A DNA stretch of 63,966 nt, counting the filler, from Stramenopiles sp. TOSAG23-6 (lineage: Eukaryota): the NCBI GenBank assembly GCA_900128565.1. It is 3 parts of 3 records of this genome, joined end to end, with 100 filler letters (N's around TTAATTAATTAA, not from the genome) between each part and the next. Parts side by side here need not be neighbours in the genome. Positions count along the whole stretch, not along the records: positions 43,642 to 63,966 come from LT636038.1; 2 more parts are not named here. One strand, given 5' to 3'. The stretch's first letter is position 1. Each line of letters opens with the position of its first letter. Position numbers and translations under genes: made by a program. Below, piece by piece: positions 1 to 63,966 of this stretch. The notes beneath the pieces were generated by a model. The model did no database searches. It saw only the letters and a list, made by a program, of their open reading frames with translations, and was not told the origin of the DNA.

Positions 1-90
1 ATGTATTTTGGAAAAATATTTCAAAAAAAAAATCGTTAGGTACAAAATTTCGTACAAAAAAAATTAAATTTGAAAAAAAATAAAACATAC
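1..90 (-). mobile_element. Introner-like intron copy, GTATG...AAAATACAT (90 nt; 3' flank lies outside the window)
   Basis: The reverse complement matches the family consensus, including GTACGAAATTTTGTACCTAAC. It follows coding sequence cga gca tta t|. Confidence 0.85.
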
Positions 91-21771: not shown

Positions 21772-21783
21772 TTAATTAATTAA
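21772..21783. other. Artificial contig linker TTAATTAATTAA between N runs
   Basis: Six-frame stop linker, repeated identically at 43586. Confidence 0.95.
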
Positions 21784-21827: not shown

Positions 21828-21880
21828 TTGTACCTAACAAATTTTAGTTTTTTTTTTTGAAATATTTTTCCAAAATACAT
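21828..21880 (+). mobile_element. Introner 3' half at contig start (...AAAATACAT; AG also available at 21884)
   Basis: TTGTACCTAAC...TTGAAATATTTTTCCAAAATACAT. Confidence 0.85.
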
Positions 21881-27800: not shown

Positions 27801-28111
27801 GAATAAAGCAGTTGTAAATATTCATAAAAATGAAGAAAGACGAAAGCGAAGAATTGTAGAGTGGTGTTTCCTTACTTGGGCTTTGAACTGTCATAGTATT
27901 ATCAGACCAGCAAGTCAATCAAATATGAGTACGTTTTCAGAATGAATTTTTTTTTTTTTTTTTTTCAAACATTCAGTATTCTCAAAAAAAAAAAATCTAC
28001 AATATTTTCCACAATGCATTGAAGCTTCGTTTGACAAAAGTTCCATCAGCAATGGTACGTTGGAGTCTGGGTATAGAACATTTGGATAATTTGAACATAT
28101 TGAATGAGTAA
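21881..28111 (+). CDS. Large IQ-motif/WW/Sfi1-like-repeat protein (5' partial); exons 21881-26170, 26266-26504, 26606-26871, 26998-27460, 27571-27928, ~28020-28111
   Basis: IQ-like motifs (IQSPMRG, VQSHVR, MQSRVR, IQSFGR), a WW domain (WEEG..GRKYWYNSKTDESTYEKP) and Trp-periodic basic repeats. The frames join through introners; the last exon is uncertain. Confidence 0.75.
23234..23804 (+). repeat. 153-bp coding tandem repeat x3.7 (51 aa)
   Basis: Identical units SGNEEDERNIEYENDF...AAAALIGSHSR. Confidence 0.95.
24268..24444 (+). repeat. 33-bp coding tandem repeat x5 (KPKxKxTEPLR)
   Basis: Seen directly in DNA and protein. Confidence 0.93.
26171..26265 (+). mobile_element. Introner, GT...AT, 95 nt
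   Basis: tcg t|ac tgt cgt is in frame; the first downstream AG creates TAA. Confidence 0.88.
26505..26605 (+). mobile_element. Introner, GT...AT, 101 nt
   Basis: cat|tct att ggt opens an 88-codon exon; the nearest AGs are out of frame. Confidence 0.88.
26872..26997 (+). other. Degenerate introner-derived intron with canonical GT-AG ends, 126 nt
   Basis: at|GTACGT...AAATTTTGTACCTAAG...CAATATAG|g cgg. Confidence 0.85.
27461..27570 (+). mobile_element. Introner, GT...AT, 110 nt (an internal in-frame AG at 27540 is an alternative acceptor)
   Basis: tat|gtt act tta is in frame; matches the family consensus. Confidence 0.8.
27929..28019 (+). other. Degenerate introner-like intron (ends ...ACAATGCAT, or at the AG 5 nt further)
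   Basis: GTACGTTTT start and AATATTTTCCACAATGCAT end; both acceptors give short open terminal exons. Confidence 0.55.
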
Positions 28112-35146: not shown

Positions 35147-37340
35147 TTAAACCTTTTGTTTGCAAATTGTTGCTAATGTACATACTTTACCTGCTTCAAA
35201 ATTTGATTTTGAAAATAAAACTTTTTCTGGAGCTTCAACATCCATCTTTTCTGTATTTCCATCCCAACGCTTCATTAACCAATGGAATATTGGACCATCA
35301 AATATCTCCCAAATGTATGGGGTATCGATATAACCTAAACTAAGTAGTTCTGATACTTGTAGAAATAAATTTCGAGCAATTAAATCTTGTGCCTTTATCA
35401 AAATATTTTGACGAAAGAAACCTTCAGAATATTTTTTTTTTGTACTACATTTTGTACCTAATGATTTTTTTTTTAGCTCTTCAACTTCTCGTTTCCAAAT
35501 ATCTTTAAATGTCTCTCGCATCAAACCTTGGGCTAATAATGCTCGTATTTGAGTAGATGATGGCTGATGACAACTGGGTAGTGACCATATTATTGAAACG
35601 ACTTGGCATATAAAGTTTCGATGATTTTTAAAAGGTATCTCCGATATATCTACATTTTCCATAATTTTGGTACAATTGTTTTTAGGTATAGGTATTAATT
35701 GTAACCAATTTTTCTTTGAAGTAAACGGACAACAAAAAATTTCTGATATGTAACTACTGGATAAGTTTAATCGAGAATAGCAACGGTTTCGAAAATTCGA
35801 TAATATACAATGGTAAGGTTGGGATTGCGGAGTATTTAGTGTACATTTTTTGTAAAAAAATATTCAGAAATTTGAAATTCGTCAGGTATAATAATAATCT
35901 AAATCTTGAGTAAAAAAAAAAATTAAATTTGAATTTTCATGATTAGGGTTAGGGTNATTAGGGTTAGGGTGAAACAAACATTCGATAGCAACACCTCTCC
36001 GGAATACAGGAGTTTCATTAAATGGGTATATCAAATCTACTAAAACAGGTTGAGGAAGTATTGTAGAGGAGATACCTTGATAATCTTCAAAATCTTTTAA
36101 TAGACTATAAAATTGAACTACATTTTCATATTTTCTACGAATATATTTCAAAAAAAAAAAAAAAAATTGTTAGGTACAAAATTCCGTACGAAGAAAAAAA
36201 TGAAATTTGAAAAAAAATAAATACGTATTTTCTACGAATATATTGTAGAGTCATCATCATATTACGATGACTTCTACGTGATTTTCGATTGTGTTTCTTA
36301 TTTTTAGTACACATTTTGGTACTTATCGACTTCCTTGGGTGACATTCTGCTTTGCTTTTTTTTGTACAATTATTTTCATGCCTCTCTATACTATTACTTT
36401 CATCACTTTGAGTAGTAGAAGTTGTAGTAGGGTTAGGGTTTTGAGTATCAGTTCTAAATACCTCAGATAAAAAAGTAGCTACAGCTGGTACGTGACATTT
36501 CATACCTACAAATCTAGAAATAGAATTAAGCACAGAAATATCTCGAGGGAGAACATCACAGCCTAATATACCGGCAAGATAAGGAAGTTGTTCAAGGGTA
36601 AGATTAAGAGCAGATAAAACTTTACATTGATTATATGTTTTGCACTCAATGGAAAAAAAATTCAGGTTTGTGCTATTTTTTGTATTTTTTGTATTTTTTG
36701 TATTTTTTGTATTTTTTGTATTTTTCTTTATGATAGTCTCATCATTTTGATTTATCTTTACAGTGCTAAAATCAATCATAAGTGCATCACCTGTATCAAA
36801 TATTAGAAAGTCACTGTCTGTAGCTAAAACACCGAAAGCTTGACTTTGTTTTGCAAATGTAGCTACGTACACATCTGCTTCACCTCGAGTGTACTGAACA
36901 CTAGCACCAGCAGCTTCCCAAGCTGACGCTAACCACAAACGATATGACGTACCTGGAATATATAAATGCTTTGGGATACTGTGTTCGTACCCCTGGTTCT
37001 TCTCATGATAAATAAGCCATTTGTTTAAGGCTTTTAATCGAATAACTTCTTTGTTTCTTCGCTTCAACCATTCTCTATTCTTGGACGAGCAAGTGCTTCC
37101 ATCAATGAATACAACTAGGTCGAACCCACAAAGTCTAAATGCTTCTACAAAATTAAAAACTTCTTCCCGCAGTCGAGTGAAGTCAAGAACGATGCCACAC
37201 ATATCCCGTAGGAAATATGAAACACCAGCTAGACCATCAACAATAATTTTCTTGGTTTCTTTTTTCTCGCTTTGAGGAGTGAACCTTACACTTGAATGAC
37301 AATGCTTTTTAGACCAGGCAGATAACCCTTGCACACCCAT
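35147..37340 (-). CDS. Asteroid/XPG-like PIN-domain protein; exons 37340-36225, 36127-35980, 35844-35147
   Basis: MGVQGL, IIVDG, VVFIDG, GEAD, VLATDSDFLIF, AGILGCD. Three ORF pieces are joined in frame by two GT...AT introns. Confidence 0.82.
35845..35979 (-). other. Degenerate GT...AT intron, 135 nt, containing telomeric repeats
   Basis: gaa t|GTTTG...TACCTGAC...AAAAAAT|gt aca. The first AG is 88 nt downstream and out of frame. Confidence 0.75.
36128..36224 (-). mobile_element. Introner, GT...AT, 97 nt, with a 19-bp exon duplication at its 3' end
   Basis: tac|GTATTT...GTACCTAAC...AAAATAT|gaa. The internal AG leads to a stop. Confidence 0.8.
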
Positions 37341-37909: not shown

Positions 37910-40900
37910 TACTCTACATGTGGATAATTTTCAGGATTAGAAATATTTTCATTCTTTTGTTCAGGATTAGAAATATTTTCATTCTTTTGTTGAGAAGATT
38001 CATCATAATTATTAGATTCTACATCATCTTTAATTACAGACGCAACAACACTTGTTCTATACACTGATTCAGAATCTTGACTTTCAGAATCTAGTATCGC
38101 ATCATGATAAGAATCATTTTCTAGTATCGCATCATGATTAGAATCATTTTCGAGGTTACTATTTTGTTTAGGCATAAGGTTATCCATCATGTATGATTTC
38201 CATATACGTTGACAAGGATCCGATACACTCAAAATTTTACTTCTGATTGGTTTTTTTATATGTTTTGGTGATGATATACGCGATCTTTCTGCTTCAGCGT
38301 GTTCGAGGCGTTTTATATGCCAAACCCGTCGATGTCGCCAAGCCCATCGTCTCCAACATGTCATAGGCCGCCTATATTGTGAATATATATATATATATAA
38401 TTCTTTTGGTTAATTCTTTTGGTTTAAAAAAAAATCCTTAGGTACAAAATTTTCTATGAAAAACTAAATGAATATAAAATTCATAATGAAAACGTACATG
38501 AGAAGTCGATGGACAAGAATTAATCTCGTCACTTGTTTCCATGCTAAGAGATGTTGTCTCATAAAATTTTGACGGTATCTTAATTCTGCTTTTGTAACAG
38601 TCTTCATAGCAATGAGAGCTCTTTGAAGCGGTCGCTTCCNGTGCCAGTACTTATGAAAATCATATAAAAGTTCCTTGCGAATTTCAGCTGCTGACTCCCA
38701 CTTACGAAAAAGCTGAGAACGAGAACGCTGGACAGATCTAAATCGAACTAGTCTACCAATAGAATGTATTTTGGAAAATATTTCAAAAAAAAAAACTTAA
38801 AATTTGTTAGGTACAAAATTTCTTACGAAAAATAAATTCAAAATTGAGGAAAAATAAAACATACATGTAAGTTAGTTATGTGCTTCCACTCTTGTATGTG
38901 TCGAGCTAATAATTGATCTCGTAAATATGCCTGAGCTTTATATTTCTTACACTTACGTCGCGATGAATTCAATGTCTCTTGTAACCATGCATGGAACATT
39001 GAACGCTTTAAATTATCATTTACAATTTGTAATTCATTCCAAGAACAATTCCGTCGTTTTCTCATAGCTTTGTAGTCCCATTTTTCTCGAAGACGACGAC
39101 AGTATGTATTTTGGAAAAATATTTCAAAAAAAAAAAAAATGTTAGGTACAAAATTGTGTACGAAAAAAAATTCGAATTTGAAAAAAAATAAAACGTACAC
39201 GATTTTCCCGCAATGCTCGCACTTAGAGTATTCCATGCTCGACGTAGTCTAGTTAAACGTTTGCCTTTTAGAGACCAAAATGTAAAGATTGGAAGTAATA
39301 CTTTTTGTCTGTGTCGAATGTTTTGTATTAAATATAAACGATGTAAGGCATATTTTATACGTGCACGTTTCCTCCAAAGAGATAATAAAGTACGGCATTT
39401 TCTTATACCTCTATTTCCCACTATTTTGACTGCTGTAGATTTTAATTGTAAAGAATAATCAGAATAGACTTTCCATACTTTAATAATTTTCATTTTTGTG
39501 TGAGATGTCCAGTGATCAAAAGCTATTTTCTCATTGTTCCTTTTGTGCCATCGTATGTCACATTTATATTTCCATCGGTATAATAATCGTTTTTTCAGTG
39601 CATTTTCATATCGAAAATTTTCTTCATCAAAATCATCTGTAGATACTGCAAGAATCTCATACTTGCGATGGATTTCATCAGAATTAGAAGTACTTTCAGT
39701 ATCGGAGGTACTACTCGATAATAAATTATCATCATTACTAGTCTGTGATACATCATTCAAAATTGTTCCAACTGCATTTGTAAGAACAGTTTCGGCGATA
39801 CTATCATCATGGTTATCTTTGGAATATCCTTCCAAGGAGTCAACTAAAACAAATTCAAGACTTTTATGTACAGGTGAACTTAAATGTGTACTTAATTCTT
39901 CACTAATGTTTTGAGCAATAATCATTCGCCCAAATGATTGAATTGTAATAGCTGCACCAATCTGTCTAGTTGATTGTAATGCAATATGTCGATTAACTCT
40001 TTTTTGAGCTCGACGTATTGCAGCATAATTTATATTTTCCGATTCTGATATTTCTTTTGTCTTTTTATTTTTAATTTTCATGATATTTCTTCTGCTGCGA
40101 ACTCTGTTACGAGCATTCTGGATTGACCTATCAATGAAATGATCATGTTTATCTTGAACACTTACACGGGATCGATAATCACTTTTTCGTTGTTGTGGTG
40201 ATTCTGCTGGAGCAATTTTAGATTTATTCTTTCGTTTTTCTCCAGCAAATCTCAAAAATCGATCAATTTTTGTTACGTCATTATCAATATATTCTCTGTG
40301 TACTACACCACTAAGTATTTCGCTTTTTTGTTGATTTTGTGTAAGACGTATTGTCATTGAATCAACATCATCAGTACTAACACTAGATTCCATAGTAGTT
40401 GTATAATCGGTTGATGTTGTTTCTTCATTTCTTGTTTTTGTTTCTGTTACTTCTGTTGCTGATAATAAAGGTTTCTTTACTCTTCTTGATGTAGGAGAAT
40501 ATGACGTCACCTTCTTTTTGCTTTTTCTATGAGGTGATTCCAAAATAAAATGCTTTCTTTTTATTAATTTCGGAGAAAGTGAAGATCGTCTCCGTCGTGA
40601 TCTTGATTTTGGAGCATGCTTCAATGTATAAACAACTTCTGTGTGTCGCGAAGGGATTGCATTTTGTAAATAATTCAGATTTTGACGATTAGTAGCATCA
40701 ACCCTATGCACTGATTGATGAGAATCAACAACAGAATGAACGTTTTTCAACCTTTTCTTAATACCTTTCGCCCGGGATGCAATTTTCATATTCCTTGTTG
40801 ATCTTTGTTCTTTCGTCTTTTGCTGTTTTTTACGTCCATTTTTCACTTTTGTTGTGACCTTTCCTTTTGATTGCGCATATCTTCTCATTCTTTCTCTTGC

Positions 40901-43541
40901 TGATTCCATTGAAGACGTTTTGGTAACTTTTGGTTTTCGGAAAGGCTCTGTAGGTTTAGCTTTCGACTTTCGTAAAGGCTCTGTAGGTTTAGCTTTTGGT
41001 TTTCGTAAAGGCTCTGTAGGTTTAGCTTTTGGTTTTCGTAAAGGCTCTGTAGATTTAACTTTTGGTTTTCGTAAAGGCTCTGTAGATTTAACTTTTGGTT
41101 TCATTGAATTGGTCAAAGATGTGTTCACTTTTTCATTTTCGCAAACGTCTTCATTTATATCTATTTCGAATTCTTGTTTCATCATAGGGAGTGTCAATGA
41201 ACTTGATATACTTCGATGAAATTTGCGCTCCTTCACAACTTTCGCTTTTTTTGGCAAGGCATTCAGCTGGTCTTTATCTTTGTATACATCTGATCCTTCC
41301 ACCTCAATATGATTATATAAAGCCTCTTCTGTATTTTCAGCACCTCTTTTTTCTTGTTGAACATTTTCAGCTTCTTTTTCTTCTTGCACATGTTCAACTT
41401 CTTTTTCTTCTTGTACATTGAAGTTGTCTTTTTCTTCTTGTATACAACTAGCTACAGTTGATACTTTTATAATCCTACCATTTAAAGTTTCTTCATTTTG
41501 ATTTTGTTCAAATTCTTTTAGTTGCATTTTTATTTGTGAATTTTCATCACTGTACTGCCGTGAACGTGAATGTGAGCCAATCAACGCAGCCGCCGCTTTC
41601 AATTTACCACGATGATTTTCCGATTCGAAATCATTTTCGTACTCAATATTTCTCTCATCTTCTTCATTTCCACTCAAGTCTTTTTGGCTGTCACTTTGAA
41701 TGGCAGACGCAGCTATTCGTGAATGTGAGCCAATCAACGCAGCCGCCGCTTTCAATTTACCACGATGATTTTCCGATTCGAAATCATTTTCGTACTCAAT
41801 ATTTCTCTCATCTTCTTCATTTCCACTCAAGTCTTTTTGGCTGTCACTTTGAATGGCAGACGCAGCTATTCGTGAATGTGAGCCAATCAACGCAGCCGCC
41901 GCTTTCAATTTACCACGATGATTTTCCGATTCGAAATCATTTTCGTACTCAATATTTCTCTCATCTTCTTCATTTCCACTCAAGTCTTTTTGGCTGTCAC
42001 TTTGAATGGCAGACGCAGCTATTCGTGAATGTGAGCCAATCAACGCAGCCGCCGCTTTCAATTTACCACGATGATTTTCCGATTCGAAATCATTTTCGTA
42101 CTCAATATTTCTCTCATCTTCTTCATTTCCACTCATTTCAGGTGACTGCCGAGGCATGTATGATGTATAATTGTTTTTACGTATGGACTTTTTAGATTTC
42201 TCAGATTTTGAATGAAAATATTTTGTTTTCAAGTCTTTCTGGCTGTCACTTTGAACGACAGATTGTGTATCAATATATTTTGTTTCTAATTTGTTTTGAT
42301 CACTTGTAGTTGTTTTTTTTGTAGTATTAATAAAAGAAGGTTTTTCATATGTACTTTCATCAGTCTTTGAATTATACCAATATTTCCTACCTGTAATTGG
42401 ACAAATACCTTCTTCCCAATATTTTGATACATTAAATTCTATTTTGTGTAACTTATTTTGCAACATTTTACGTACTTTTCTTTTTGCAATACAACTTCTT
42501 ACACGAGACTGCATTTGAATGACAAGGTGAATTTTTAATTTTTCATCATTTTGCCAGCGTTGTTTTCTGTGTTTGGAATATTTAATTACATCTTCTAATT
42601 CTTTTTCAAGTCTAATTATTTCACATTGTTGATCACTTTCTTCATTGTTTTGTTTTTTTTGTTTTCTATTTGACTCTTTACTACATTTCCACCTTGCATC
42701 TGTAGATAACTTTTCATTTTGAAATTGTACATCATCTTCCATTTTCCTTAACTTTATTTTTGTTTTTGCAAGTTCGATTTTAAATGATAATTTATTTTTC
42801 TTTCTTTCCTCCTCTATATTATTTTCATACGATTCTTTTTGTTTTCTTTCTGCCACTTCTTCAAACATTTGTTGGCTTATTAATTGTTCTTCATTTCGTT
42901 TTTTTCTCATAGCTTTAACAATATTTTTGGCGAATATTTGGCGAACGTGTGACTGGACCATTACTATTAGTTTATATTTTCTTTTATTTTCTTCCTTTAC
43001 TTTTTTGTGTTTTTGTATACATTTCTGCCAGTTTTTTTTCCCGCGTGTTTCTTCAAGAGCTTTGTTTTCTTCTTCATTTCGCTTATTCTGCAAAGATGCG
43101 ATACGCAATAATCCTGCATCATGTTTCTCTAATAAATTCTTTTTGGCACTAGCCTCTGCAGACTTACGTCGAGCTATTTTCCCTCGCATAGGAGACTGAA
43201 TTCTTATAGCCATAGCATGCAAACGTTCACTGTCTTTATTTTCCTGTTCTTGCTTTCTTTTTTTTTCTTCTTCTTTTAACTTTTCTTTTTCCTTTTGATT
43301 CGATTCAAAACTTTCTAATTTATTTTTGATACGTGCAAGATTTTCTTCTTTTTCAGCAATCTTCTTACGCTTCTGATGTAATTTGGCTTTAGATTCTTCT
43401 CGCATTCGTTTTAACTCTAATCTTGCTTTTTGTGCATTGGCTGCATCTTTTTTCCATTGGTCTTCATTTGTTTTCGCTCTTAATCTATATGTATTTTGGA
43501 AAAATATTTCAAAAAAAAAAACTAAAATTTGTTAGGTACAA
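37910..43541 (-). repeat. Right arm of the inverted duplication (partial copy of the IQ/WW gene; mirror introns 38372-38497, 38764-38864, 39104-39198, 43489-43541)
   Basis: Exact reverse complement of 21828-27459. Confidence 0.97.
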
Positions 43542-43585: not shown

Positions 43586-43597
43586 TTAATTAATTAA
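43586..43597. other. Artificial contig linker
   Basis: TTAATTAATTAA within N runs. Confidence 0.95.
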
Positions 43598-43641: not shown

Positions 43642-43704
43642 TTTTTTTTCGTACGAAATTTTGTACCTAACGATTTTTTTTTGAAATATTTTTTCATCAT
43701 ACAT
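43642..43704 (+). mobile_element. Introner 3' part at contig start (...CATACAT)
   Basis: CGTACGAAATTTTGTACCTAACG...; followed directly by codons for VLGVTTVAGN. Confidence 0.85.
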
Positions 43705-44673
43705 GTATTAGGTGTCACAACAGTTGCAGGAAATATGGGAATTGAAGCTGTTACGGCTGCTACACTGAAAGTATTAGATGCGGCAGATGCTCCTATTTAT
43801 TTACCTGTTGCAAAAGGATGTGAAGAACCATTAGTTGAACCTTGTCATTTTTGTCCTCAGATACATGGTACAGATTCATTGGGCGATTTGAAACCACCAT
43901 TACCATCGTCAAATCGAACTCTCGATGAAAGACATGCTGTTACTCTAATACTAGATAATCTTTTAGAAATTGATAAATCCAATGGAAAATTACCAAAAAT
44001 GACTATAATAGCTCTTGCTCCATTAACGAATATTGCAATGGCTATTCGTTTGAAGCCTAGATTGTGTAGACGTTCTATTCATCGAATTGTATGGATGGGT
44101 GGTTCGGCATTTGCTGGTGGTAATGCGAGTGCCTGGGCTGAAGCAAATGCAGCCTATGACCCAGAAGCAGCTCATATTGTTTTTACCTCAGGTATCGAAA
44201 TCATGTTATATACATGGGACGTATATCTAAAGGTGGAATATTCTTGGAAGGAACTTTTAGAATTAGGTGTAGTAGTATCAGAAAGTCCTATAGGTATAGG
44301 AAGTATAGGAAATGATAATGAAAAAGATGTTCCACCTACAAGTGTAATGATATCGGATAAACTTAAGCCTTGGTCGTCTTTAGGATCTCGATTGCTTCTT
44401 AGAGATATGCGTTATTGGAAAAATAAAACTGCTCAAATTGGAGATGCTGGTGCTGTTGCGGCTGTTATTGCACCTAATGCTGTGACTACAAAACATATGC
44501 ACGTTTGTATCGAACTCCAAGGCAAGAATACGCGTGGAATGACTGTATGTGATCATAGACTATTTTCCACACCCCCAGATTTACCTATTTTGAAACCTAA
44601 TGTACATGTATGTATTGATGTTGATGCAAATGCTATAAAAGATGTATTCACATCAACACTGTTTAAAAAATGA
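43705..44673 (+). CDS. Inosine/uridine-preferring nucleoside hydrolase (5' partial)
   Basis: VLGVTTVAGN, IHG.DSLG, LAPLTNIA, WMGG, AEAN...DPEAA, TRGMTV.D. Confidence 0.93.
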   Translation, partial: VLGVTTVAGNMGIEAVTAATLKVLDAADAPIYLPVAKGCEEPLVEPCHFCPQIHGTDSLGDLKPPLPSSNRTLDERHAVTLILDNLLEIDKSNGKLPKMTIIALAPLTNIAMAIRLKPRLCRRSIHRIVWMGGSAFAGGNASAWAEANAAYDPEAAHIVFTSGIEIMLYTWDVYLKVEYSWKELLELGVVVSESPIGIGSIGNDNEKDVPPTSVMISDKLKPWSSLGSRLLLRDMRYWKNKTAQIGDAGAVAAVIAPNAVTTKHMHVCIELQGKNTRGMTVCDHRLFSTPPDLPILKPNVHVCIDVDANAIKDVFTSTLFKK

Positions 44674-44734
44674 AAGAATCTATAGATAACAAAATATGTT
44701 CAAGTGAGTATATTTATAATTTAATAAACTTCGT

Positions 44735-47298
44735 TTACCATCCAAGAGCACTACTAGTTTCTTTGCCTCGTGGTGCGTGAGGATCATTGTGATCAGAACT
44801 TCCACAAGATTTGATCGCGTGAACAAGGGTGTCCTCCACAAGATTAACATCAAATGATTCTGAACGCCTTATACGCTCGGAAGAGATACCAGGTGTGGTA
44901 CTACTCACTAAGTGTTCATGAGGATGAACCAGTTGCTCAAATGCATCAACTTGGATTATGTCCTCTCTTAACTTTTCGGCCACGTCGAGTTTTGCCTGTT
45001 CTTCAATAGTGGCGTCACGCTTTTCTTTACGCAATTTCGATAAAATTTTATCTCCTTCAATACATTTTGAAAATGCTTCATTGATTTGACTTACTCTATC
45101 TAAGGGATTCTCTGAAATAAACACACTTTCAGACAATAATTTTCGAATTTCAGATTCAGTAGTAATTAATTGAGAAGTAGCACGAACTAATCCATCACTT
45201 GGTACAGAATATGCACGACCTAATGGAAATGAAATACCTCGCATCAAGAACCCTATGGGACGTACGGGGAAATTATCAAAAATGCCGTAAAATGCATCTT
45301 CTATATCATGTGTTATTTGGGTCAAAGCATGATCAATAATAGTATTCGTTTGTTGTACATTATTTTTCTTAGCAAACCATAAGACAGAATATCCTAAATA
45401 TAGATTAGATAATATATCAGCATATCGACCGGACAGTTGTTCTGCGGTTTTTAATCGACCACCTAATATAAGTCCTAAATCCGTTGTTACTGCAAACGCA
45501 GCAGATAGGCGATTTAGTTGAGATTCGTGAAATCTTGAAATGTCTGATTTAGATCTTGTACGAGTTATAGCTTGGCTAAACGCTCTGAAAGCATTAGTAG
45601 TGCCATGTCCTAATAAACTTCTTACATGTTTTGAAAATCCTTTTTTATCATCTCCCTTTGAGATTGAAGCAATTAGATCTTGCATATGAGGATGCGCACG
45701 GTTTAGCCCTTGACCAAACACAATTAATGATCGGGTAAGAATATGTAATCGAAGAGAAATATTTCATTTGTTTTTTTGTTAGGTACAACATTTACTACGA
45801 AAATAAAATTGAGATTTTTTTTTGGAAACGGACATTTGCGCCTTCGACAGTAATTGCGACTGGCATTGATTGATATTTTGAAGCCATATAATTCATAGGT
45901 CCTTTACAAATTCCTGCACCGCCTATGACGTCCATAGCATCATTCCCTACAGTTCTACCCATCTCCGTACATTTTAACTTCATTATCGCGGATAAAACTG
46001 GAGGTCTTTCATGTTGACCCACAGCAGCATTAAATAGATGTTGCGATGCAGTGCATGTGTATGCTAGAGATGCGATTCTTGCTAACCTTTCTTGGATGCC
46101 TTCCATCTCCGCAATGGGAACCTTGAACTGCTTTCTGATTCTAGCATATCCTCCAACAGCATTGACGCATGTATTTTGAAAAAATATTTCAAAAAAAACG
46201 TTAGGTACAAACTTTCGTACGAAAAACAATCGAAATTGAAAAAAAATAAAACATACACAATTGAGCTATACCACCTGCTGATGCAGGTAAAGATATTCCC
46301 CTACCTTCCCCTAGGCATTCCATAAGCATATTCCAACCAAACCCAGTGCGTTCTTGACCACCAACAACGTTTGTTAATGGTATAAACACATCACGTCCAC
46401 GGACAGGTCCGTTCATGAAACCGGCATCGATGGGGTTATGCCGCGCTCCAGTTAAAAGTCCCTTGTGTCCTTTATCTAACAAGCAAACGGTAATGCCTTC
46501 ACTTCCAACGCCCTTTAAGAGTCCATTTGGGTCCTTGACATCAATTGCAAGACCTATTAGAGTAGCTACAGGGGCGAGTGTTATATAACGTTTATTAAAA
46601 GTAGCTTTTACACCTAAAACGCCATTCTGCTCACAAACAATACCAACATCGCGCATAGAAGCAGCGTCAGAACCTGAAGATGGCCCGGTGAGTGCAAAAC
46701 ATGGAATGTCAACTCCAGTAGCTAACCGAGGTAAATAATGTTTCTTTTGTGAATCAGTGCCGTATTCTCGTAATAGCTCAGCTGGGCCCAAAGAATTAGG
46801 AACCATGACAGTAACAGCGGCGCATATTGAACGCGTAGCAACTCGCTGTAACATAACTGAATGAGCATGCGCAGAGAATCCTTTACCACCGTAATCTTTG
46901 GAGATACACAAGCCAAGGAAGCCTTTCTCCCTAATATAACTCCAAACCTCTGGTTTCAAATTTTGGTCCAAACTTACTTGATAATCATCAATCATTTCGC
47001 ACAGAGTATTAACTTCGACGTCAAAGAAAGATTGTTCTTCGGTAGTAAATCCAACATCATATTTGTCCACAAGTTTTTGTAACGATGGTGATCCGGAAAA
47101 TATATCCCGATCAAACCCTACAGTCCCAGAATCCAGAGCTGCTTGTTCCGTTGCAGATATCTTTGGCATAATTCGTTTGGCAAAATTATACAACGGTCCC
47201 ACCACAAAAGTTCGGCGGGTGTTAAATATGGGACTAATTGAAGAATGAAACTGGAGTATCCTCCGAGATTTGCCTATACGTATGCTTCGGCCCAACAT
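44735..47298 (-). CDS. FadE-type acyl-CoA dehydrogenase; exons 47298-46257, 46168-45834, 45742-44735
   Basis: MPKISATEQAAL, MVPNSLGPAELL, KRYITLAP, GRGISLP, YARIRKQF, ITVEGAN|ILTRSLIVFGQG, LGGRLK..EQLSGR.AD. Confidence 0.95.
45743..45833 (-). mobile_element. Introner-derived intron, GT...AT, 91 nt
   Basis: Removal restores ITVEGAN|ILTRSL exactly; there is no AG after the branch point. Confidence 0.93.
46169..46256 (-). mobile_element. Introner, GT...AT, 88 nt
   Basis: ttg t|gc gtc is in frame; the first downstream AG creates TGA. Confidence 0.93.
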
Positions 47299-47540
47299 TT
47301 TTGGACTAATCAAGAAGAAAATAGAAAATCAATTTAATGAAACAGTAGGTAAAATATTTTGTCAGTTCCAGTGCTTGGCCAATAATGGCCAAGGTTGCGC
47401 AATACAACTGAAAATGACAGCTGTCGTCGCGCATTATTATCGATCGATACCCGGAACCCGGCTCGATATATATTATTATCTCATAAATTAAAAAAAAATG
47501 TTATTATTTGTTTATTTATTCACTGGTATAGTCGTTATAT

Positions 47541-48494
47541 TTAGTTCAAAAGATTTAATCTAGCTGCACCAAGTGCAAGAGGGAGTGATACAAAAAACAA
47601 AGTTCTATTTCTGCGAATGTTCAATATTCCAGCAAAAAATATGGCAAGGGAAACATTTGACCACTTCATCTCATGTCTAAGGATATTCCACGACTGTTTA
47701 CCTGAAAATAAAGCAAGAAATGGAATATTAGACGTCACTGCATCTACTTCTGGAGTCAATATACCACCTGATCTATTCCGATATCTATGATCTTGATGCT
47801 CTCCACCAATAAAAGCAAATACTGTAGGAAAGGAGAATAATACTATAGTGGGTACAAAAGGAGATGCTATTGCTGTACCTAAACCTAATGAAGCAAACGA
47901 CCATAGGGCAGGATGCCTTGTGACGCGCTCTAAACCATATATGTCATTATTGTTCGGTTTTTTGGAAGAAAAGTCAAATGGACATCGAGCCACCCAGACC
48001 TCTTTTGCTTTAGTTGATGAACCAGTTGCTACAGCGCTAGTGTCCCTTGATAAGAGAACACCAGAGCTAATATCAGACACACTTAGCATGCCATTTGATG
48101 GTAAAGTATTTTGGGGTATACTGTCGCCTAGTGCGGATTTGTTATTTGCAATATATGATTGTAAACCAAAAGGAAACTGAACTTTTGGCAACAATTGTGA
48201 AAAACCGATGAGTCCAAGTCCTTGGAACGCAAAAGAAGACAAAGTTATAGCTACTCCTGCGCGGCCATGCCATAATCGTGGACCGACCCCGTAACCATAT
48301 TTACAGTAGCCCCACAGAATTGATCCACATGCTGCGGTTGATAGGACATTGTACACACCATGATACGTCTGCTTACCAAAGTTACTTATCAGATAGTCGC
48401 GATTATGGGACACAACAACATTCTCTAGAATGAAAGCACTCCAGCCCAATCCTATCCAACGAACACCCCGATGTGATAATATTGCTTGCAACAT
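47541..48494 (-). CDS. NnrU-domain membrane protein
   Basis: R..LI...G...Y..VY..LS, G..RVTRHP.LW, HQD.R, TSNIPFLA. Confidence 0.85.
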   Translation of the reverse strand: MLQAILSHRGVRWIGLGWSAFILENVVVSHNRDYLISNFGKQTYHGVYNVLSTAACGSILWGYCKYGYGVGPRLWHGRAGVAITLSSFAFQGLGLIGFSQLLPKVQFPFGLQSYIANNKSALGDSIPQNTLPSNGMLSVSDISSGVLLSRDTSAVATGSSTKAKEVWVARCPFDFSSKKPNNNDIYGLERVTRHPALWSFASLGLGTAIASPFVPTIVLFSFPTVFAFIGGEHQDHRYRNRSGGILTPEVDAVTSNIPFLALFSGKQSWNILRHEMKWSNVSLAIFFAGILNIRRNRTLFFVSLPLALGAARLNLLN

Positions 48495-48950
48495 CTATGA
48501 TGTGATGTGGCAAATCAGAGATTGTGAGAATGGTTTGAATATAAATGATCCCTGGAATATATAATTAATATATAATTATAATGGAACACAAGACTGGTGC
48601 ATAACGGAGTACCTACGGGTATTAGTGAACTGGATGAATCCGATTGATTTGAGATTCGCGGTCACCGTATTTTTGCTATCTGAAATTCTGAATTTCTGAA
48701 AATCTTGATTCGTGTGGATGGAGCCTTAGTTATTACTATAAATTTTATGGTTTTGTGTGTCATTTTAGTATTTTACTTGATAATTTTATATTAGTTATTG
48801 AAATGTTCCTGTTCCGAGGAGATATTTTGCACATATTAAAAATATATTGAAAATAATTTAGTTTAAAATGAAAAAAAATAGCAATGCCCAATATTATATT
48901 ACGTAATAAATATCTCATGGTTGATTTTATATCAATAAAAAAAACTAAAA

Positions 48951-51900
48951 TTACATCCATCCTGCATCTTGCTCATTATCGTTATAAAATCCATTATTTG
49001 TTTCATCTTGATCCACATCATTTGCTTTACCACCAGTTGGATCTTGCCATACGACATCACCAAAGACGCTATGCACCCAACATGATTTCCCGTGAGGTTT
49101 TGAGAATGTCTTCTTCCAGCCTGTAGTTGGCATAGCATTTGCAGTATCCGCGTGAGTATGTCGGGCAAAGACAATGACACGATCTCTCTGTCCAGCTTGT
49201 CGCAACAAATCTATTGCAGCACTAAATTTTGTCTCGCGAAGATCTTTTCCGTCTATACTTATAACATGCATTCCAATACTTACTCCTGCATCCTCCACAG
49301 GGCTACCACCGGCACTTTCAGGACGGAAGCTTTTTACTTTTAAGCCTTTCTTTCTTCCTGGAATCTTCATAAAATCGGTGAAAGAAGATCCCGTTTTTAA
49401 TTCTACATCAATTATATTATCACCACTTGATTTCAAGATTTCGCGACATGAATCTGTTATTACTGATGCAGCTCGTTCAGGGGTAGCAAATACTAAATAT
49501 CTCGTTTGTTGTGAGCAATCTTGCAAAGCAACAGTGACATCAAGCTGGGGCATATTTCTTACATCTTTGCCATTGATACTAACTAAAAACATTCCTACTT
49601 TAGCACCTGCTCGTTCTACTGGGCTACCTCCCTTATCAGCCGGTCTAAAGCCTGTGACGCGTACACCAGTAGGATGGTGTTTTATTTTTCCAACCATCAT
49701 ACAAGCTGGGCCAGGAGAAAGTAGCACATGAACCACGCCAGGGGCTCCTTTTCCAAACGATAATTTCATCCCCTTTTCGTTTTGCCCTTTTTGTTGCAAT
49801 AGAATTGTAATTGTTTCAAATGATGTCGTAGTTACATCATTATCATCAACACGAAGCAATCGCTGTCCAGGTATAACACCCTTATTTCTCAAAATTGAAT
49901 GTTCTGTTATACTATTTACTGTAGCTCCTATGCCGTCGTTAGTTGTTGCTACCACGCCTATTCCTAATTTTACACCTTGTGGAATATGGATGGAATCAAT
50001 CATCGCTGCTTCACCATCACGATTGATGTGCATAACTCCGCCACTTGAAACATTCATTGTGATACTCTTTGATTTCTTAATATTAAAACCAGAACTAGGA
50101 AATACTTTACTGCTATTTTTGGCTGATGCTTTTCGTCTGAGTAATATAAGACGTTGAACTCCTTTGACAAGGCGAGTTTGTTTGACAGATGGGTCGCGCC
50201 ATACAACACTACCTGTAACGTCATTAACCCAATAAAACTTTTGTTTACCTTCGGCCCAGTATTTACTCCAATTTTGCTCTTCTTCTTCTTCCTCTTCTTC
50301 TTTCTTCTCAAATGATGTAAGTGCTATCAATTTCTCACATATCGGATCCGCAATTTTCCTACGACATGGAGGGATCATAAAAATAACAATTACAAAACCT
50401 AATAGGACTACAGCAATATTCACTGTTACAAGCATACTACCAAGCATACCATTCTCACCATCTACAGAATCACTCGCAATCAGTAAACCTGAGAAGAAAA
50501 TGAAAAATAGTACAATCAATAGACACTGTTGTAAAATGTCATCAATATCTGAATGATATGGGTGTGTATTCATAGCCAACATCATAAACACTACGGTTAC
50601 AACAAGACCACATGCGCTTCGTTCAATCTCATCCCCAGCCATACTGATTCCACCAGTCATTAAAGCTTTACGTAAAAGCTCGGAGCATTCAAACCACCAA
50701 TACTGGCGTTCATACTGCATGAAAAGAGACCCAAAAACGCGTATAGATCGATGATAATGTTTGTTACTATCATGAACCCTACGTTCTTTCTCGTCCATTC
50801 GGTCTGGGTGTATAAGAAGGTCACGACGATTGTACATCAAAATGAGATACAATAAAGGAACTCCAACAACAAATAAACCAATTCCAGCCGTTGCCATTAA
50901 ATGCATTTGTGCATATACAGGGTTATCGTCACTACATTCAATACTAGCATCAGCTCGTAGATACCTTTTATCATTAATAGAGAAACAATTGAAAACACGG
51001 AAACAACGAGTAGTAAGGCCGGGGTACATTAAAAACACCACCACATTGAAAAATATAAGTGCTTCATCCCTTGCACTTAAAATTGTATACCGTAGTCTTG
51101 GAACAATTTTTTTGCCAATATAGCAAATACAATAAACTAAAAATAACACCAATGAGAAAAATGGTAATACGCTCACATGGGCCACGAAGCCGCCAGCAAA
51201 GTCTGTTGAAAAATCACAGGCCGAAAAATCCGTGAGCACCGCCATGAAGTCCATATTAACCATTTTGAATTGATCAAACAATGCAACAAATTCCGGAGGA
51301 AAATTGACTCCCAATGTAAATTGGAGTTGTGAAACGACTTGCATGTGCGATACAACTTGGCGCATTGTTGCCATTAATTGGTAATATTCCCCCATTCCGC
51401 CGCGTCCACCTGCTGATGCCATCTTGCCACCAGAATCTTCCGCGGCACCTAGTAACATATCAGCACGACGCTCATTGTCTTCTTCATCTCCTATATCCTC
51501 TACGATTTTCGTTTCTTTGGGAGTTGGCATTTTCTTTGTACCTTCTTTCATTAAAGTTTGAACATCAGTTGCTTTTAAAGCTTTTGCTCTAGCGGCTACG
51601 TCTCTTCTATGACGTTTTAAATTTTTTTTTTGCTCACTTTTCCCAGTAGTCGTCTCCTTTCTGATTGCGTGTACCCATTCGGAATAAGTCACTACGCCAT
51701 CCCCATCTACATCAATAGTCTCAACCATTAAATCAACGAGACGAGCATCCATACCACGCTTTAATAAGCCAGACTTAAGCTCGATTTTGCTGACAGTACC
51801 AGAGTTATCTTTATCAAGATAATTGAATGTCTCTCTTGGATTTATATCTTTAGTGTCAACTTCTTCAAAAGGTGGCCTTTTACAAAGAAGAAGAAAAGCT

Positions 51901-54900
51901 ATTATGACTGTGCAAATAGTTGCTACAATTGCTGCATAAAAAAGACCTCCGGAGGATTGCCCGCCTGGGCAAAATGTGCACCGCATACCATCGCTGGTGC
52001 GAACATAGTTCTTATCACATAATCCACATATAGGACCCTTGTAACCTTTTGTACAATTAGACCAATTCGTGTGTTCTTCGGTAATAACCCCATTACCGTC
52101 ATCATGTAGCTCACTTGGACACATTCCAATATATGCCCAATAGTTTCCAGCATTTTCACAGCTTTCCTTGTCGGTGACATCAGCAATGACTTCTTCACAA
52201 GTAGTTATTGCATCTAGAGATGCTCCTATCTCAGGTCTACAAGTTTGACACTCAAACTCATCCAATAAACAAGGCAAAGGATCTAAATCTTGAGGATTAT
52301 CAATAAAAAAATCGCGATCTTGCCAGAAGCCAGCTTTTATACTTAATTTTGCAGAGTCCAGGTTTGTATTGTAAGCCAGGCCGTCTGTCATACATACCAT
52401 CTGTAATTATAAAATATCAAAGTAAAAACTATGTTAGATAACTAAATGGGGTAATTTTAAAATATAATAGTGAAAGTAATGAAAAGCTATCAAATCAATA
52501 TAATATCTACTACGTACACTATCAGCACATCTTGTACAAGAAATTGCATCAGAGTCATGATTAGATAATGTATCAAGCTTAATACGTGTCGGGATACTGA
52601 TGTTGTAGTGTGTGGCAAAATAAGCAGCATTTTTTTTGAATTGATTTTTCTCTATTAATTTTTTGGAATCCTCTATCATTTGTTCCAAATCTGCAAGATG
52701 GCCAAAATAACCTCGTGGACACTGACAACGCTTTCTGTCTAAATCACCCTCTGCTTCTATTCCGGGACAATCGCCCTCATATTTTGTTCCTTCTGGGCAA
52801 AATTTTTTCTCAGCACATTCCATCTTCACTGAAGAAGTTTGGCAAAAATAGCCCTCGGGGCACAGCCCAGTTTCAGTCGATCCAGCTTCACAGTACCCTC
52901 CTTTAACCGAATCACCACACATTTTTATTGTAGATGATTGAGTGCAGAAACTTCCTGCAGGACACAAAGTTGGAATTATCGTTCCCAGAGGACAATAAAA
53001 CTGTCTGCCATTATGAATGCCACCCTTAGCAGGACCAGCTCGTACGGCATCTGAAAGATCATACTCATAATCAGACCAAACACCTTTCATACCATTTTGG
53101 TTATTCTCGCATAACGCTTTTGTGTCCCGCTTTTCATACCAAATGCCATCAGGCTCACAATTAGCTGCAGTTTTCTCTGTGAGTACTCTATCCTCCAACA
53201 TAAGATTTTTACTTATACATGTATCTGTGCTCACATTGATATTTCCAATCATACAACCCGCATAGGGGTAATCACAAGAAAATTTAAACTTGCCCTCTTC
53301 ACAGTAAAACCCGACTGGACATTCTATAGGAAGCATCGTTTTCTCTGGACAAAACCAACCCGTATCAGCATCGCGAAGGAAAACATCAATAGCAAGGGGG
53401 TTGTATACACAAGATTTTTTTACAGAGGAAGTTGTGCAATAAAACCCAAGAGGGCATGGACTTCTTGCAAAACTACCTCTGGCACAAAATTCAGCATTTC
53501 CTTCATCTGATGTACATAAAGTCTGAACTTTTGAATCGGGGCAAAATGATCCTAACGCACACTGGTTTCCTCTATCAGAGCCTTCTGGGCAGTAATAAGC
53601 TGTGGTACCATCGGTATTAAGTGGACTAGTTGGATCGGCAGGATTATCAAGAGTACTATCATCACAAGAGTATTTGTATCTACCTTCCTCGCAATAATAC
53701 CCTTCGGGACATAGTACTGGACCCTTACTGTTTCCAGGACAATACCAAGCTTTTGTATCTTCTGCATTATTTTGCAATACATTGTCAGGATGCTCAGGAT
53801 CATACACACAACTCTTCTTGATATTAGAAGTCGGACAGTAATAACCTGGTGGGCACTGCGTAGGTGCAGATGAACCTTCTTCGCAGTATGTGCCATCATC
53901 AGGACATTTCACTTCTGTTTTCGATGTCTCGCATTTATACCCAGCTCTACATTTTGAGGGTGCCATCGATCCAGCAGCACAATAAAACGCAATATTTTGG
54001 ACAATGATTGAGTTAGGATCTTTAACTGGGTCATTTGCAGAGTTATCACATGAATACTTGAATTTTCCTGAACTACAATAAAATCCTACTTCACATTGTA
54101 TCGGAGTGGTATTTCTACCTGGACAATACCAAGCTATAGTGTCATTTTGAAGTAATATATCCGGCTCATTCTCATTCCACTCACAACTCATTTTTGAAGC
54201 TGGAGAAGGACAGTAATATCCTTGGGGGCAATCTTGTGCAGATGATGAGCCAAGAGGGCAGTGGTCTCCATTGCTACAAGCGATTTCTTCTCGCGAATTT
54301 GGGCATCTATACCCAGGTTTGCATCTCTCTGATCCATGACTACCTGTAGGACAATAAAACGAGTCATACACCTGCCAAGAACCTGAGAATAACTTTATAT
54401 TGGGTGGCGTACTGCATAAGCCCGCATCTATTAGATCAACAGAATCAATTGCTCCCTTGTTATCGACTGTATAATCTGCGAGAGGAAGTTTAGAACATTC
54501 TCCGCCTGAAAATTCTATCTGCCCAGGTATATATCCTGTGCCTTTTGAAGGAAGAGTGACTTCAACCCCTATTGGATTCAGCTTAAATACAAGCTTCGCA
54601 TTATTTCCACTGTTATCATCAGCTATACTTGCCGATGGGGGTACGGTACACTTCACTGTTCCTGGATTGTCTAAGACAATGGGTGAAATGATTGCGCCTT
54701 CAGCTGTAACTGTCAATGATGCGACTGGATATACTGTGCATGTCCCCCCAGTAAACACAACCGGTGCAACAGTATAACCAGTACCACATGTTTTTTGGAA
54801 AAATATTTAAAAAAATAATCGTTAGGTACAAAATTTCGTACGAAAAAAAAATCGAATTTGAAAAAGAATAAAACATACAATCTGTACACGAAAGTTCACC

Positions 54901-57900
54901 TGATGTTGGTTTTAGCGAAATTTGAAGCACTGCGGTTGACCCTGTAGTGCCTTCACATAATTTCTGTGTATTCCGAGCAGGAAACCACGTTCCACTATCA
55001 CCATTTATTTCGGTAGCACAATCCTGGCTTGTACGACCAAGAATTCCTGTTGTTGACCAATCGCCACCAATAGCCGTACATTTAGACTTTGTGTTTGCCT
55101 CGTTGCTTACTGAACCTTGAGCAGTTGTACATGTACCTTTGACACAAATAGGATGCTTAATATTAGCGCCACCTGAAATGGCGCAACGTCCAAGTGGCTC
55201 CGATGAGACACCAAACTCGGTCCATACACCAGCTTCTGCTACACCACCTGGATTTTCACAATTTTCTTTCGTTGTACGAGCCTCATACCAAACACCAGCT
55301 GGATTTCCAGATTTACATGAATTTTCATCCGCTCGATTAGTCAAAACACCAAAAGGAGACTGTTGTTGGATACATGTATTCTTTATAATGTTTACTTTAC
55401 TTGCAATGCTCGAAGAATTAGGATCTGTTTGTAATATACAAGCCGATGAAAAGGGATAATCACATGGAAATTGTTGATATCCCCCTTCACAGTAAAAGCC
55501 AGCAGGGCATCGAGTTGGAGTTTTTAATCCTGGTGGGCAAAGCCAACTGGTCTCATTATTTATCAACCGATCATCAGGATTGACTGCACTAAATACACAG
55601 GATGATTTGCTTGATGCATCAAAGCAGTAATATGCCTCGGGGCATAGTGACGCAGAGAAGGTTCCTGGTGGACAATACTGTGCGGCACCTTCTACGCTTG
55701 TACACATAATAGATTCCCGAGAATTAGGACAAAAATTTCCAGCACTGCAAACGGTATATGTTTTACTACTTCCTGGGCAATAATATGACGTTGGGTTTTC
55801 CCATGTCCCTGCTTGTTGTATTGTCACCGATAGAACTGCAGTTGTACCAGTTGTAGTTGCTTTTGGGTTGGCTGTAGGTGGCGATGAACAGTTTTGCTCC
55901 GCCGTATCTATGGTAACATTAATGATGGACCCATCTGCGCGAACTGTGTAATTCGCAGTGGGAAATTCTGCACAACTGCCCTGAAATTCAATCAATCCAT
56001 CAGTGTACCCCGAACCGCTATTCACTACCCCGACTGATATGGTCGTGATACATTCATCCCTAGTCGTCCGTGGTTTGTACCAAGTAGTCGTCGCATCTGA
56101 TACACAATTTGTTGCAGTAACTGGAACCGCAGAACCGGTGTCAGTTTTCACACACACACCATTGGTGACATTTATTCCATTTACAACACATGTACCAAGT
56201 GGTTCAGTCATGTCTTTAGTTCTTTTCCATGTATTAGCACAAGTTGCCTTTTCTTCGGTTCCTGCATACCACTTTCCAATCTCGCCGTTTTTATTTGTTT
56301 CACAGTCTGTCTTATTGAAGCGGCCTAACAGAACATCGTCCGTAGACGCCCATGTACAGCTGTTGCTTGTACAACCAGATTCGGTGTTTTGTAAACTACA
56401 CCCAGATGCTCCAACACATGAATGTTTGACACATGTATCTTTCACAACATTGATGGTCCCCAGCAAACACGAGCTTGAAAATGGGTAATCGCATGGGAAA
56501 CTATGAACGCCCTCTTCACAATAAAAACCAGATTTACACCGAGTTGGAGTACTAGTGCCCTCAGGACATAACCAACTTATATCTCCATTGATAAGTGCAG
56601 CCACTGGATTTTGCTCATCATAGACACAAGATACTGGTAACTCTCCATTGACACAAAAATGTTTTTCTGGGCAAGTTGTTACAATATACCCTTCACTGCA
56701 ATATGACCCATCAGGACATATAGTTGGTGATTTACTTTTAGGAGGGCATTTCCATGTTTTTTCGGCGCTTTCTAATTGTGCATCTGGAGCAGCATCGTTC
56801 CATATACAAGATCGTTGTACAGATGAATCTGGACAGTAGTTTCCCTGCTCGCAGTCTTTCACGTCAAAAGAACCAACTGGACAAAAGGACCCATCATTTT
56901 GGCATTGAACCTGTTGGCGACTATTTGGACAACTATTTGTAGAAGCACATGTTATTGGAGACCCACTTCCTTTAGGACAATACCAAGCAGTGTATTCCCA
57001 TATACCACCGCTTGTATCACAGTCAGATTTTGTTTTCGGTTCAGTCACAACACCAGACTTGTAGCACTTTCCTTTAGGATATTCCGAATCCGGTGTCTCT
57101 AATTCGGTCCATTGACCGGCAGCCTTCAACCCGGGCGCACAACAAATTGCACCATCAGCGAAATCTTCTGCTACACATGAGTCTTTCCCACATGTTGTAC
57201 CCTTTGGGGATTTTCTAAGTGCATCTGAACATGTCCATGTCTCAATTGACTCACAAAGTTGACCATTCTTTTGACAACAATTTCCAGCTATAGTGAAATC
57301 AGCGGCAACACAAGGATTTCCAGCACAAATTGGAAACCCTGTCGAAACTATCTCAAGATCAGCAGCATCACAAGATCCAATACCCAAAGAAATTCCAGCC
57401 GCACAAGTTTGCGGGGGTGGATTTCTACAACATTTTTTACTTGCATCACCAAAGTCGATATTTGCTGAGCATTCCGAACCTGAGCATCGGGTACCAACAA
57501 GTGCACTGACCGCAGGGCTTAAACATGAGACAGTAACGCTGTTTTGCAACTGCTCCAATACAAAACTTTCACAAGTTTGATGAGTGCTCGGAGCCTCACA
57601 ACAAGTTGTATTAGCATCACCAAAATCGGTTGTCTTGCAATAACCATTACAGTATGTACCTGCAGGAGCAATTGAAGCACCACTTGAGCATGATATAGTT
57701 ATTGAAGGGGTAAGAGATGCTTGAGCAGTAACATAGTCACTACAAAGTTGACCCCTGGCTTCGCAAGCTGCTTGAGTTGATCGCCCTTTAATCCACACAC
57801 CCTTTGGTGTAGCACTCTCGCACGCAGATTGTGTGGTATGGGCTAATATAGTTCCTATATCATTCCACGTGCACCCGTCTGCAGCTTTACATGAGTTGGA

Positions 57901-63900: not shown

Positions 63901-63966
63901 ATATAAGTTTCATTTGCGAGAAATGTGCTCCATGGTGAAACATTGCGGCTGGCATTACATCCGTAA
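48951..63966 (-). CDS. Giant (~5000 aa) Cys-rich multi-pass receptor-like protein with GCC2/3-like, EGF, PAN-like and FN3-like ectodomain, EF-hands, TM bundle, WW and PDZ domains; 5' end uncertain; introns 54788-54878 and 52401-52517; frameshift near 61040
   Basis: Four consecutive minus-strand ORFs. CPxGxYC repeats; DKDNSGTVSKIE and DVDGDGVVTYSEW; YE..YWWFE..ELLRK; two WW motifs; PDZ-like G....INGKDV. Confidence 0.85.
52401..52517 (-). other. Canonical GT-AG intron, 117 nt
   Basis: agt|GTACGT...TCTAAC...TTACAG|atg. Confidence 0.9.
54788..54878 (-). mobile_element. Introner, GT...AT, 91 nt
   Basis: gat t|gt ggt act ggt tat restores a GTGYT motif that recurs elsewhere in the protein. Confidence 0.9.

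Follow-up and report, generated by a model that had tools for sequence, protein, structure and literature searches.

A repeat family giving rise to GT-AT introns, with RNA support, in Stramenopiles sp. TOSAG23-6

The window, i.e., the whole stretch of 63,966 nucleotides of Stramenopiles sp. TOSAG23-6 (assembly GCA_900128565.1) analyzed here, carries on its minus strand a gene of a FadE-type acyl-CoA dehydrogenase (44735-47298; Pfam PF02771, PF02770 and PF09317), which comprises three exons (47298-46257, 46168-45834 and 45742-44735) and encodes a protein of 794 aa. The exons are separated by two AT-rich, frame-shifting inserts, the excision of both of which gives a single 794-aa frame: insert 1 (46169-46256, minus strand, 88 nt) and insert 2 (45743-45833, minus strand, 91 nt). 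In the first-pass annotation both were described as introns with a GT donor, an AT end, a TACCTAAC branch motif and no AG between this motif and the next exon, and all these features, coordinates included, proved to be as described. The first downstream AG is indeed unsuitable at either insert, as was also claimed: the one 18 nt past insert 1 leads to TGA at once, and that past insert 2 (+34 nt) is followed by a stop one codon later. The best named matches of the FadE protein (61-67%) belong to oomycetes and other stramenopiles. In a CDC20 tree, constructed from 50 of 120 matches (the best 42 and 8 labelled ones) and the window sequence, the latter fell within a supported five-row clade (100/97) together with a model labelled GSMAST32, a label which we take to stand for a MAST-3 marine stramenopile; according to this one gene tree, the host groups with MAST-type stramenopiles.

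Ordinary GT-AG introns are present in the same DNA. One of them (4531-4626, plus strand) joins the frames of an RNase HII gene (Pfam PF01351) at the DEAG/RGP motif; another (52401-52517, minus strand) joins two long frames of a giant gene; a probable third (7095-7193, plus strand) is in frame and without a stop, being AT-rich, with a family-like donor and no match of the intron to the family profile. Removal of a GT-AG intron at 26872-26997 (plus strand), which is a diverged member of the repeat family considered below (family profile E 2e-6), likewise joins frames. The lengths of these AG-ended introns (96, 117, 99 and 126 nt, respectively) are all divisible by three vs. 2 of 10 AT-ended ones, although the numbers are small. 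The giant gene (48951-63964, minus strand) consists of four long frames with Cys-rich repeats followed by a TRP-like membrane part, EF-hands and PDZ, which probably form one protein of ~5,000 aa; two introns (54878 and 52517) connect its frames, together with an A-run at 61037 that differs by one base, a difference also seen in the DNA run X3 (see below). A WW-domain gene contains a 153-nt coding repeat that recurs 3.7 times without change (23234-23804). Linkers with stops in all six frames are situated between N runs at 21772-21783 and 43586-43597; the window is thus made of joined contigs, and the neighborhood across those gaps is not real. The segment 37910-43541 is an exact 5,632-nt inverted duplicate of 21828-27459, whose start coincides with the edge of a contig, within a family copy; it is likely an assembly artefact.

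To analyze the FadE junctions, the 120 best homologues were turned into a profile, against which all open-frame deletions around each insert were scored (3,465 for insert 1 and 3,145 for insert 2). Only deletions of exactly the insert length reached the top score, and the best GT-AG alternatives fell 19 bits (insert 1) and 47 bits (insert 2) below it. The spacers across the junctions, 16 residues at insert 1 and 8 residues at insert 2, each match 117 of the 120 homologues, the other three being without the motif. The protein profile leaves five tied registers at insert 1, GT-AC among them, and three at insert 2, AT-AC among them. At insert 2 the readings AT-AC, TG-CA and GT-AT are identical to the letter, an ambiguity that had escaped earlier notice; at insert 1 the letters of GT-AT are reproduced by TG-CA and TA-TG, but a donor of spliceosomal type is present in the GT-AT reading alone.

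Direct evidence on the junctions came from environmental runs. The run search listed 17 runs, mostly seawater or marine metagenome by label, 11 of them with a share below 0.2. Four (three with a share below 0.2) were compared with positions 43645-63600, the remaining low-share runs having no evidential weight: the polyA metatranscriptomes X6, X7 and X9, which are three samples of one study, and the DNA run X3 of a separate study, so that the RNA and DNA samples differ. The evidence consists of assembled contigs rather than reads, and contigs show presence only. In X6 (record 12) position 46167 is joined to 46256 with no mismatches, which corresponds to a skip of 88 nt with letters as expected for GT-AT; these letters rule out GT-AC (by the letter at 46258), AT-GC and all AG ends, and remove the AT-AC ambiguity for the whole family. 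A contig of X7 (record 17) lacks exactly 45743-45833. The flanks of the spliced contigs are 107/302 nt and 170/201 nt, and each junction is represented by one contig with a depth of about 7, both in one study. Retention of the inserts in cDNA or use of downstream AGs had been named as outcomes that would speak against GT-AT splicing; both contigs show exact skips and no AG end. In X9, no piece across the FadE junctions was found among the matches listed (32 of 7,675 pieces). RNA junctions of the family copies at 54788 and 43642 were not seen in the X6, X7 and X9 contigs, the missing RNA cover of 54788 being uninformative, so that 2 of the 4 copies in 43645-63600 are skipped in RNA.

The independent DNA of X3 shows the same intron ends. 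Its contigs enter both FadE inserts from either side and carry the CAT ends without any difference, and no listed piece spans the inserts with the insert missing; sequencing error at the CAT ends, the concern behind the earlier proviso of CAG in raw reads, was rejected on this ground. Both SNPs of the spliced X7 contig (45563 and 45653) recur in an X3 DNA contig running into the insert. Among the listed joints from 46257 (15 of 100 joints), 44 of 64 X3 contigs continue in another copy, entering it at its terminal T or beyond; no listed row stops where a CAG end would fall. RNA editing as a source of AG was also rejected, as A-to-I conversion makes AG from AA (stated in the available text of PMC4176328), never from AT. 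Within FadE, 8 of 12 X3 differences are silent (expected share 0.23, p 0.002), and this excess indicates that the insert-bearing gene is under selection. Element-bearing contigs are frequent in the RNA runs (810 in X7), which may reflect common intron retention or DNA carry-over. Separately, X7 contains joints from 54850-54852 to 46169-46172, which lead from close to the 3' end of one copy into a copy at roughly its position 28; this pattern is unlike that of a lariat or a full circle and is perhaps due to nested copies or assembly-graph loops.

Sequence similarity links the FadE inserts with one another and with further AT-rich inserts of the window, identity among young, unlinked copies being 88-91%; insert 1 is a young copy, and insert 2 is more diverged. 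The shared layout comprises a GTAYGT donor, a T-run, a short palindrome, TACCTAAC, another T-run and the terminal CAT. Hence, beyond what was noted before, the AT-ended introns all belong to one family of ~90-nt repeats inserted in the sense of the gene, i.e., to an introner; gene-sense orientation was observed in all frame-tested copies. A partial family-like core at 35431-35471 (plus strand, E 0.003) lies antisense within an open frame and is either a chance match or a decayed copy. On 43645-63600, 5,733 X3 contigs were placed, mostly on family copies, and the summed X3 depth of the element is about 22,600-23,800 vs. 10.4 for unique DNA; this ratio of about 2,000 is a rough hint rather than a copy number. 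The introner is probably present in the order of thousands of copies per genome. Three abundant contig breaks of the window (1, 21828 and 43642) fall inside family copies. An exact 24-mer scan for further copies gave no matches in the metagenome and none in viral contigs, a gapped-pattern scan gave 36 metagenome loci and one viral locus, of which 0 of 37 were true copies on inspection, and Rfam had no matches within the window. By exact look-up, 2 of 10 intronless window proteins were found, both as singletons.

All counts exclude the inverted duplicate 37910-43541 together with its copies at 38423-43541. In the remaining 58,035 unique bases, 12 AT-ended candidates were detected vs. 4 AG-ended introns by a scan that may miss some, and most other genes appear intronless. 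Two of the candidates have RNA support, two are supported by homology, four by frame only, and four are ambiguous or cut off; 10 of the 12 end in CAT. Apart from FadE, homology supports the 91-nt intron at 54788-54878 (minus strand) in the giant Cys-rich gene. Here the count of CxxC motifs left the matter undecided, and the internal protein repeat decided it: the junction peptide aligns without gaps to the next repeat over 67 aa (E 1e-10). In a nucleoside hydrolase gene, the 3' part of a copy ending in CAT was found at 43642-43704 (plus strand), its 5' part lying in the N gap; the residues just past AT align with the LLAITTV motif of solved hydrolases, the alignment being not decisive, as a TAG follows 7 nt on. 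Homologue searches for other junctions gave no matches for the XPG/asteroid-like gene and none for the WW-domain gene.

The first-pass annotation had the frame restored by GT-AT removal at five sites, and it is restored at all of them: at 54788, where alone the protein repeat agrees, at 26171-26265 (plus strand, 95 nt; the first AG leads to a stop, the second, at +36, is in frame), at 26505-26605 (plus strand, 101 nt; none of four tested AGs restores the frame), at 36128-36224 (minus strand, 97 nt, ending in TAT) and at 35845-35979 (minus strand), a diverged candidate with N inside and a weak family score (E 0.018). At 36128, the final 20 nt of the intron are identical, save for one position, to the 20 nt at the end of the upstream exon (36128-36244, minus strand), and an out-of-frame TAG 7 nt inside the intron would need to be skipped. 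The sites regarded as compatible with the rule fared unequally: 43642 gained from the hydrolase alignment; a 110-nt family intron at 27461-27570 (plus strand) restores the frame with AT and also with AGs at -30 and +30; a possible diverged intron of 91 nt without TACCTAAC (27929-28019, plus strand) keeps an open frame with an AT end or a nearby AG; and the copies at 1-90 (minus strand; full, ending in CAT, 91% identical to the 54788 copy, its downstream exon outside the window) and 21828-21880 (plus strand; 3' part ending in CAT at a contig edge) each lack one flank. The statement that the organism routinely splices GT-AT introns beside GT-AG ones is therefore backed by RNA at both FadE sites and by GT-AG introns at 4531, 52517, 26872 and probably 7095; the frequency implied by "routinely" is derived from frame, homology and the number of repeats rather than from many RNA junctions. 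In a farther-reaching reading, which we regard as rather more likely than not, GT-AT introns of this one introner would form the majority class of this MAST-type genome (thousands of copies) and be efficiently spliced by a major spliceosome with normal donor recognition and a changed check of the last base, old copies drifting to AG.

The donors carry G at +5 in 9 of 10 cases and T at +6 in all 10, and 8 of 9 AT-ended introns included in the folding analysis possess CTAAC at a distance of 32-43 nt from their end, the corresponding distances in two ordinary GT-AG introns of the window being 33 and 35 nt. The GTACGT donor also occurs in ordinary GT-AG introns of the window. Between the branch motif and the end, 5 of 8 copies have no AG and 3 of 8 have one; in insert 2, an A-rich tract takes the place of the pyrimidine tract after the branch motif. 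Considering donors, branch motif and spacing, the introns look like those of the major-spliceosome (U2) type, with a GT donor with +5 G and a CTRAY branch motif, but AT in the place of the 3' AG at both sites with RNA support; they are not canonical U2 members, though they appear to work like U2 introns. They also differ from hairpin-defined introns of the euglenid or Amoebophrya type, as their termini are fixed and stable end pairing is absent: on folding, end pairing was no better than in shuffled sequences (9 introns, z from -1.6 to +0.3).

Handling by the minor (U12) spliceosome has to be considered, since U12-type GT-AT introns are known to splice productively (PMC1557818), GT-AT accounts for 17% of 1,014 non-canonical U12 introns in Physarum (10.1101/2020.10.12.336362) and minor introns occur in some stramenopiles (10.1101/2022.09.24.509304), as follows from the available parts of these papers. 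Of the 9 positions of the U12 donor, 7 are shared by the commonest family donor, and the family branch motif differs from that of U12 introns in lacking one T. However, CC at +5/+6, as in RTATCCTT, was found in none of the 10 donors, which have +5 G instead in 9 cases, the branch motif is TACCTAAC rather than TTCCTTRAC, and the GTACGT donor and branch spacing are shared with ordinary GT-AG introns of the window; we find U12 handling improbable. Even less credit can be given to removal by a non-spliceosomal route, or to true ends AT-AC or TG-CA with the same mRNA. The letter-identical readings at both inserts speak for the latter, but insert 1, 26171 and 54878 do not permit an AT-AC reading, the RNA letter at 46258 rules out GT-AC, and the conserved donor and branch motifs and the lack of a stable end-pairing hairpin oppose non-spliceosomal removal. 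According to a further rival, the spliced-looking contigs stem from alleles free of the insertions or from jumps of the reverse transcriptase, and the inserts are unspliced damage. It draws on the different origin of the RNA and DNA samples and on there being one contig, indicating presence only, per junction. Nevertheless, spliced RNA and insert-bearing DNA share SNPs, X3 enters both inserts from both sides with no listed piece joining across, the joints carry direct repeats of 2 nt, and FadE evolves under constraint in spite of two frame-shifting inserts, all of which makes this explanation very unlikely.

Taken together, these data lead us to consider it likely that an AT-ended introner was spread by DNA transposition and is spliced by the U2 machinery through relaxed checking of the last base. 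A non-autonomous element of ~90 nt would be copied into many genes in sense orientation, supplying the GTAYGT donor, the CTAAC branch motif and a T-rich tract. Its end would be an AT repeating the AT usual before the donor, so that GT...AT excision would restore the original message exactly. The major spliceosome would presumably remove the element, step 1 requiring only the donor and the branch point, and in step 2 docking would occur on (Y)AU, with Y(-3) and A(-2) kept and the last base changed from G to U. In the second step, the last G of an intron presumably pairs with its first G; here, a terminal G-U pair would take the place of G-G in branch-point-anchored U2 splicing. The 3' splice-site recognition, proposed earlier to be relaxed or altered, may have been changed by a lineage-specific loosening of last-base checking through U2AF1, Prp8 or snRNA modification. 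Old copies would slowly convert AT to AG: the AG-ended member at 26872-26997 and loose ends in the RNA runs, of the same end type with AT, fit such a conversion, in a direction that we infer.

The origin of the acceptor deserves separate weighing. Exon bases before the donor include T at -1 in 8 of 10 cases (p 0.001) and AT in 5 of 10 (p 0.0008), AT before the donor is likewise the consensus in the flanks of other copies in X3 (51 and 30), and the ends are inverted (GTAT/ATAC, 4 nt, or 6 nt if the flanking AT is included), with an inverted box of 6 nt in sub-terminal position; their pairing, as stated above, does not exceed that of shuffled sequences. The AT before the donor and these inverted ends suggest a putative MITE whose AT target duplication may have supplied the acceptor. 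In the comparison with homologous proteins, no allele with an empty site was seen. Alternatively, the same introns, removed by the same spliceosome, might have spread via reverse splicing or as a TG...CA element inserting before T, and the AT would then be no target duplication. In favor of this, introns end in AT also where exon position -2 is G, G or T, i.e., the terminal A shows no locus-specific match in 3 of 3 informative copies (2 of them silent third positions); moreover, all frame-tested copies are gene-sense, and a constant dinucleotide is indistinguishable from a duplication (available text of PMC9860276). Against it stand the enrichment of AT before the donor, including the X3 flanks, and the inverted ends. 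We hold this alternative to be possible, though the less probable one; it alters the origin only and leaves GT-AT splicing as it is. With either origin, the GT-AT introns are real, RNA-supported and made by one repeat family.

These observations suggest that splicing in this uncultured marine protist departs from the GT-AG rule as a matter of routine. Known large-scale exceptions alter both ends or many features together, whereas here only the last base departs, and AG-ended introns of the same genome, one family member included, provide a natural test of AG conservation and its enforcing factor. An introner can thus generate non-canonical introns, and gene callers and introner surveys that admit AG/AC ends only would overlook or disrupt genes of this kind in marine protist genomes. 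Indeed, the surveys report rare 5' sites with AG/AC 3' sites (PMC9860276, PMC12130899), and PMC12130899, in its available text, gives only AG and AC as 3' sites, other unsupported families having been dropped. Non-canonical introner introns and rare GT-AT introns are known, and a GT-AT introner class was not found in print, which does not establish its absence: no genome with such a class turned up in the literature searched, in line with the first-pass annotation, to which no abundant GT-AT class was known, most subscription papers, slash spellings and supplementary (family) tables lying outside its scope. Non-canonical introns in MASTs were not found either, the available texts of MAST genome papers making no mention of splicing.

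As far as the accessible portions of the respective papers go, several known systems resemble the window in part. Introners of Micromonas, Aureococcus, Chrysochromulina and others (PMC9860276, PMC12130899, PMC11282704) are likewise short, high-copy, AT-rich repeats with their own 5' site, the 3' site apparently coming from the insertion site with no net mRNA change, but their 3' site is AG. Amoebophrya (PMC7789003), a marine protist, also has abundant non-canonical introns, in part introner-derived; there, no terminal pair dominates, inverted repeats of 8-20 nt form hairpins and U1 was not found, whereas the window has fixed GT-AT ends, a branch motif and no stable hairpin. Rare GT-AT introns (a U2-type one in DGCR2, U12-type ones of mammals and of Physarum, and an infrequently spliced one of Giardia; PMC1557818, PMC4176328, 10.1101/2020.10.12.336362, PMC10711314) share the terminal pair, so that spliceosomes can use GT-AT, yet these are single cases or a small U12 subset, with no repeat family, and not the commonest class. 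Fritillaria borealis and F. pellucida possess MITE-derived, U2-spliced non-canonical introns (PMC13326754, PMC11282704), for which G-G and A-C pairs are discussed as isosteric (PMC13326754, section 30). As in the window, the 3' AT is the commonest end there (34% and 44%), and the introns terminate in a YAY triplet, which is frequently present before the donor as well. In these chordates, however, non-canonical donors add to the picture (AG-AC 18%, AG-AT 16%), with many classes side by side, whereas the stramenopile introns keep a strong GT donor and depart in the last base only, and would thus represent a second, independent lineage with mass use of 3' AT, outside animals.
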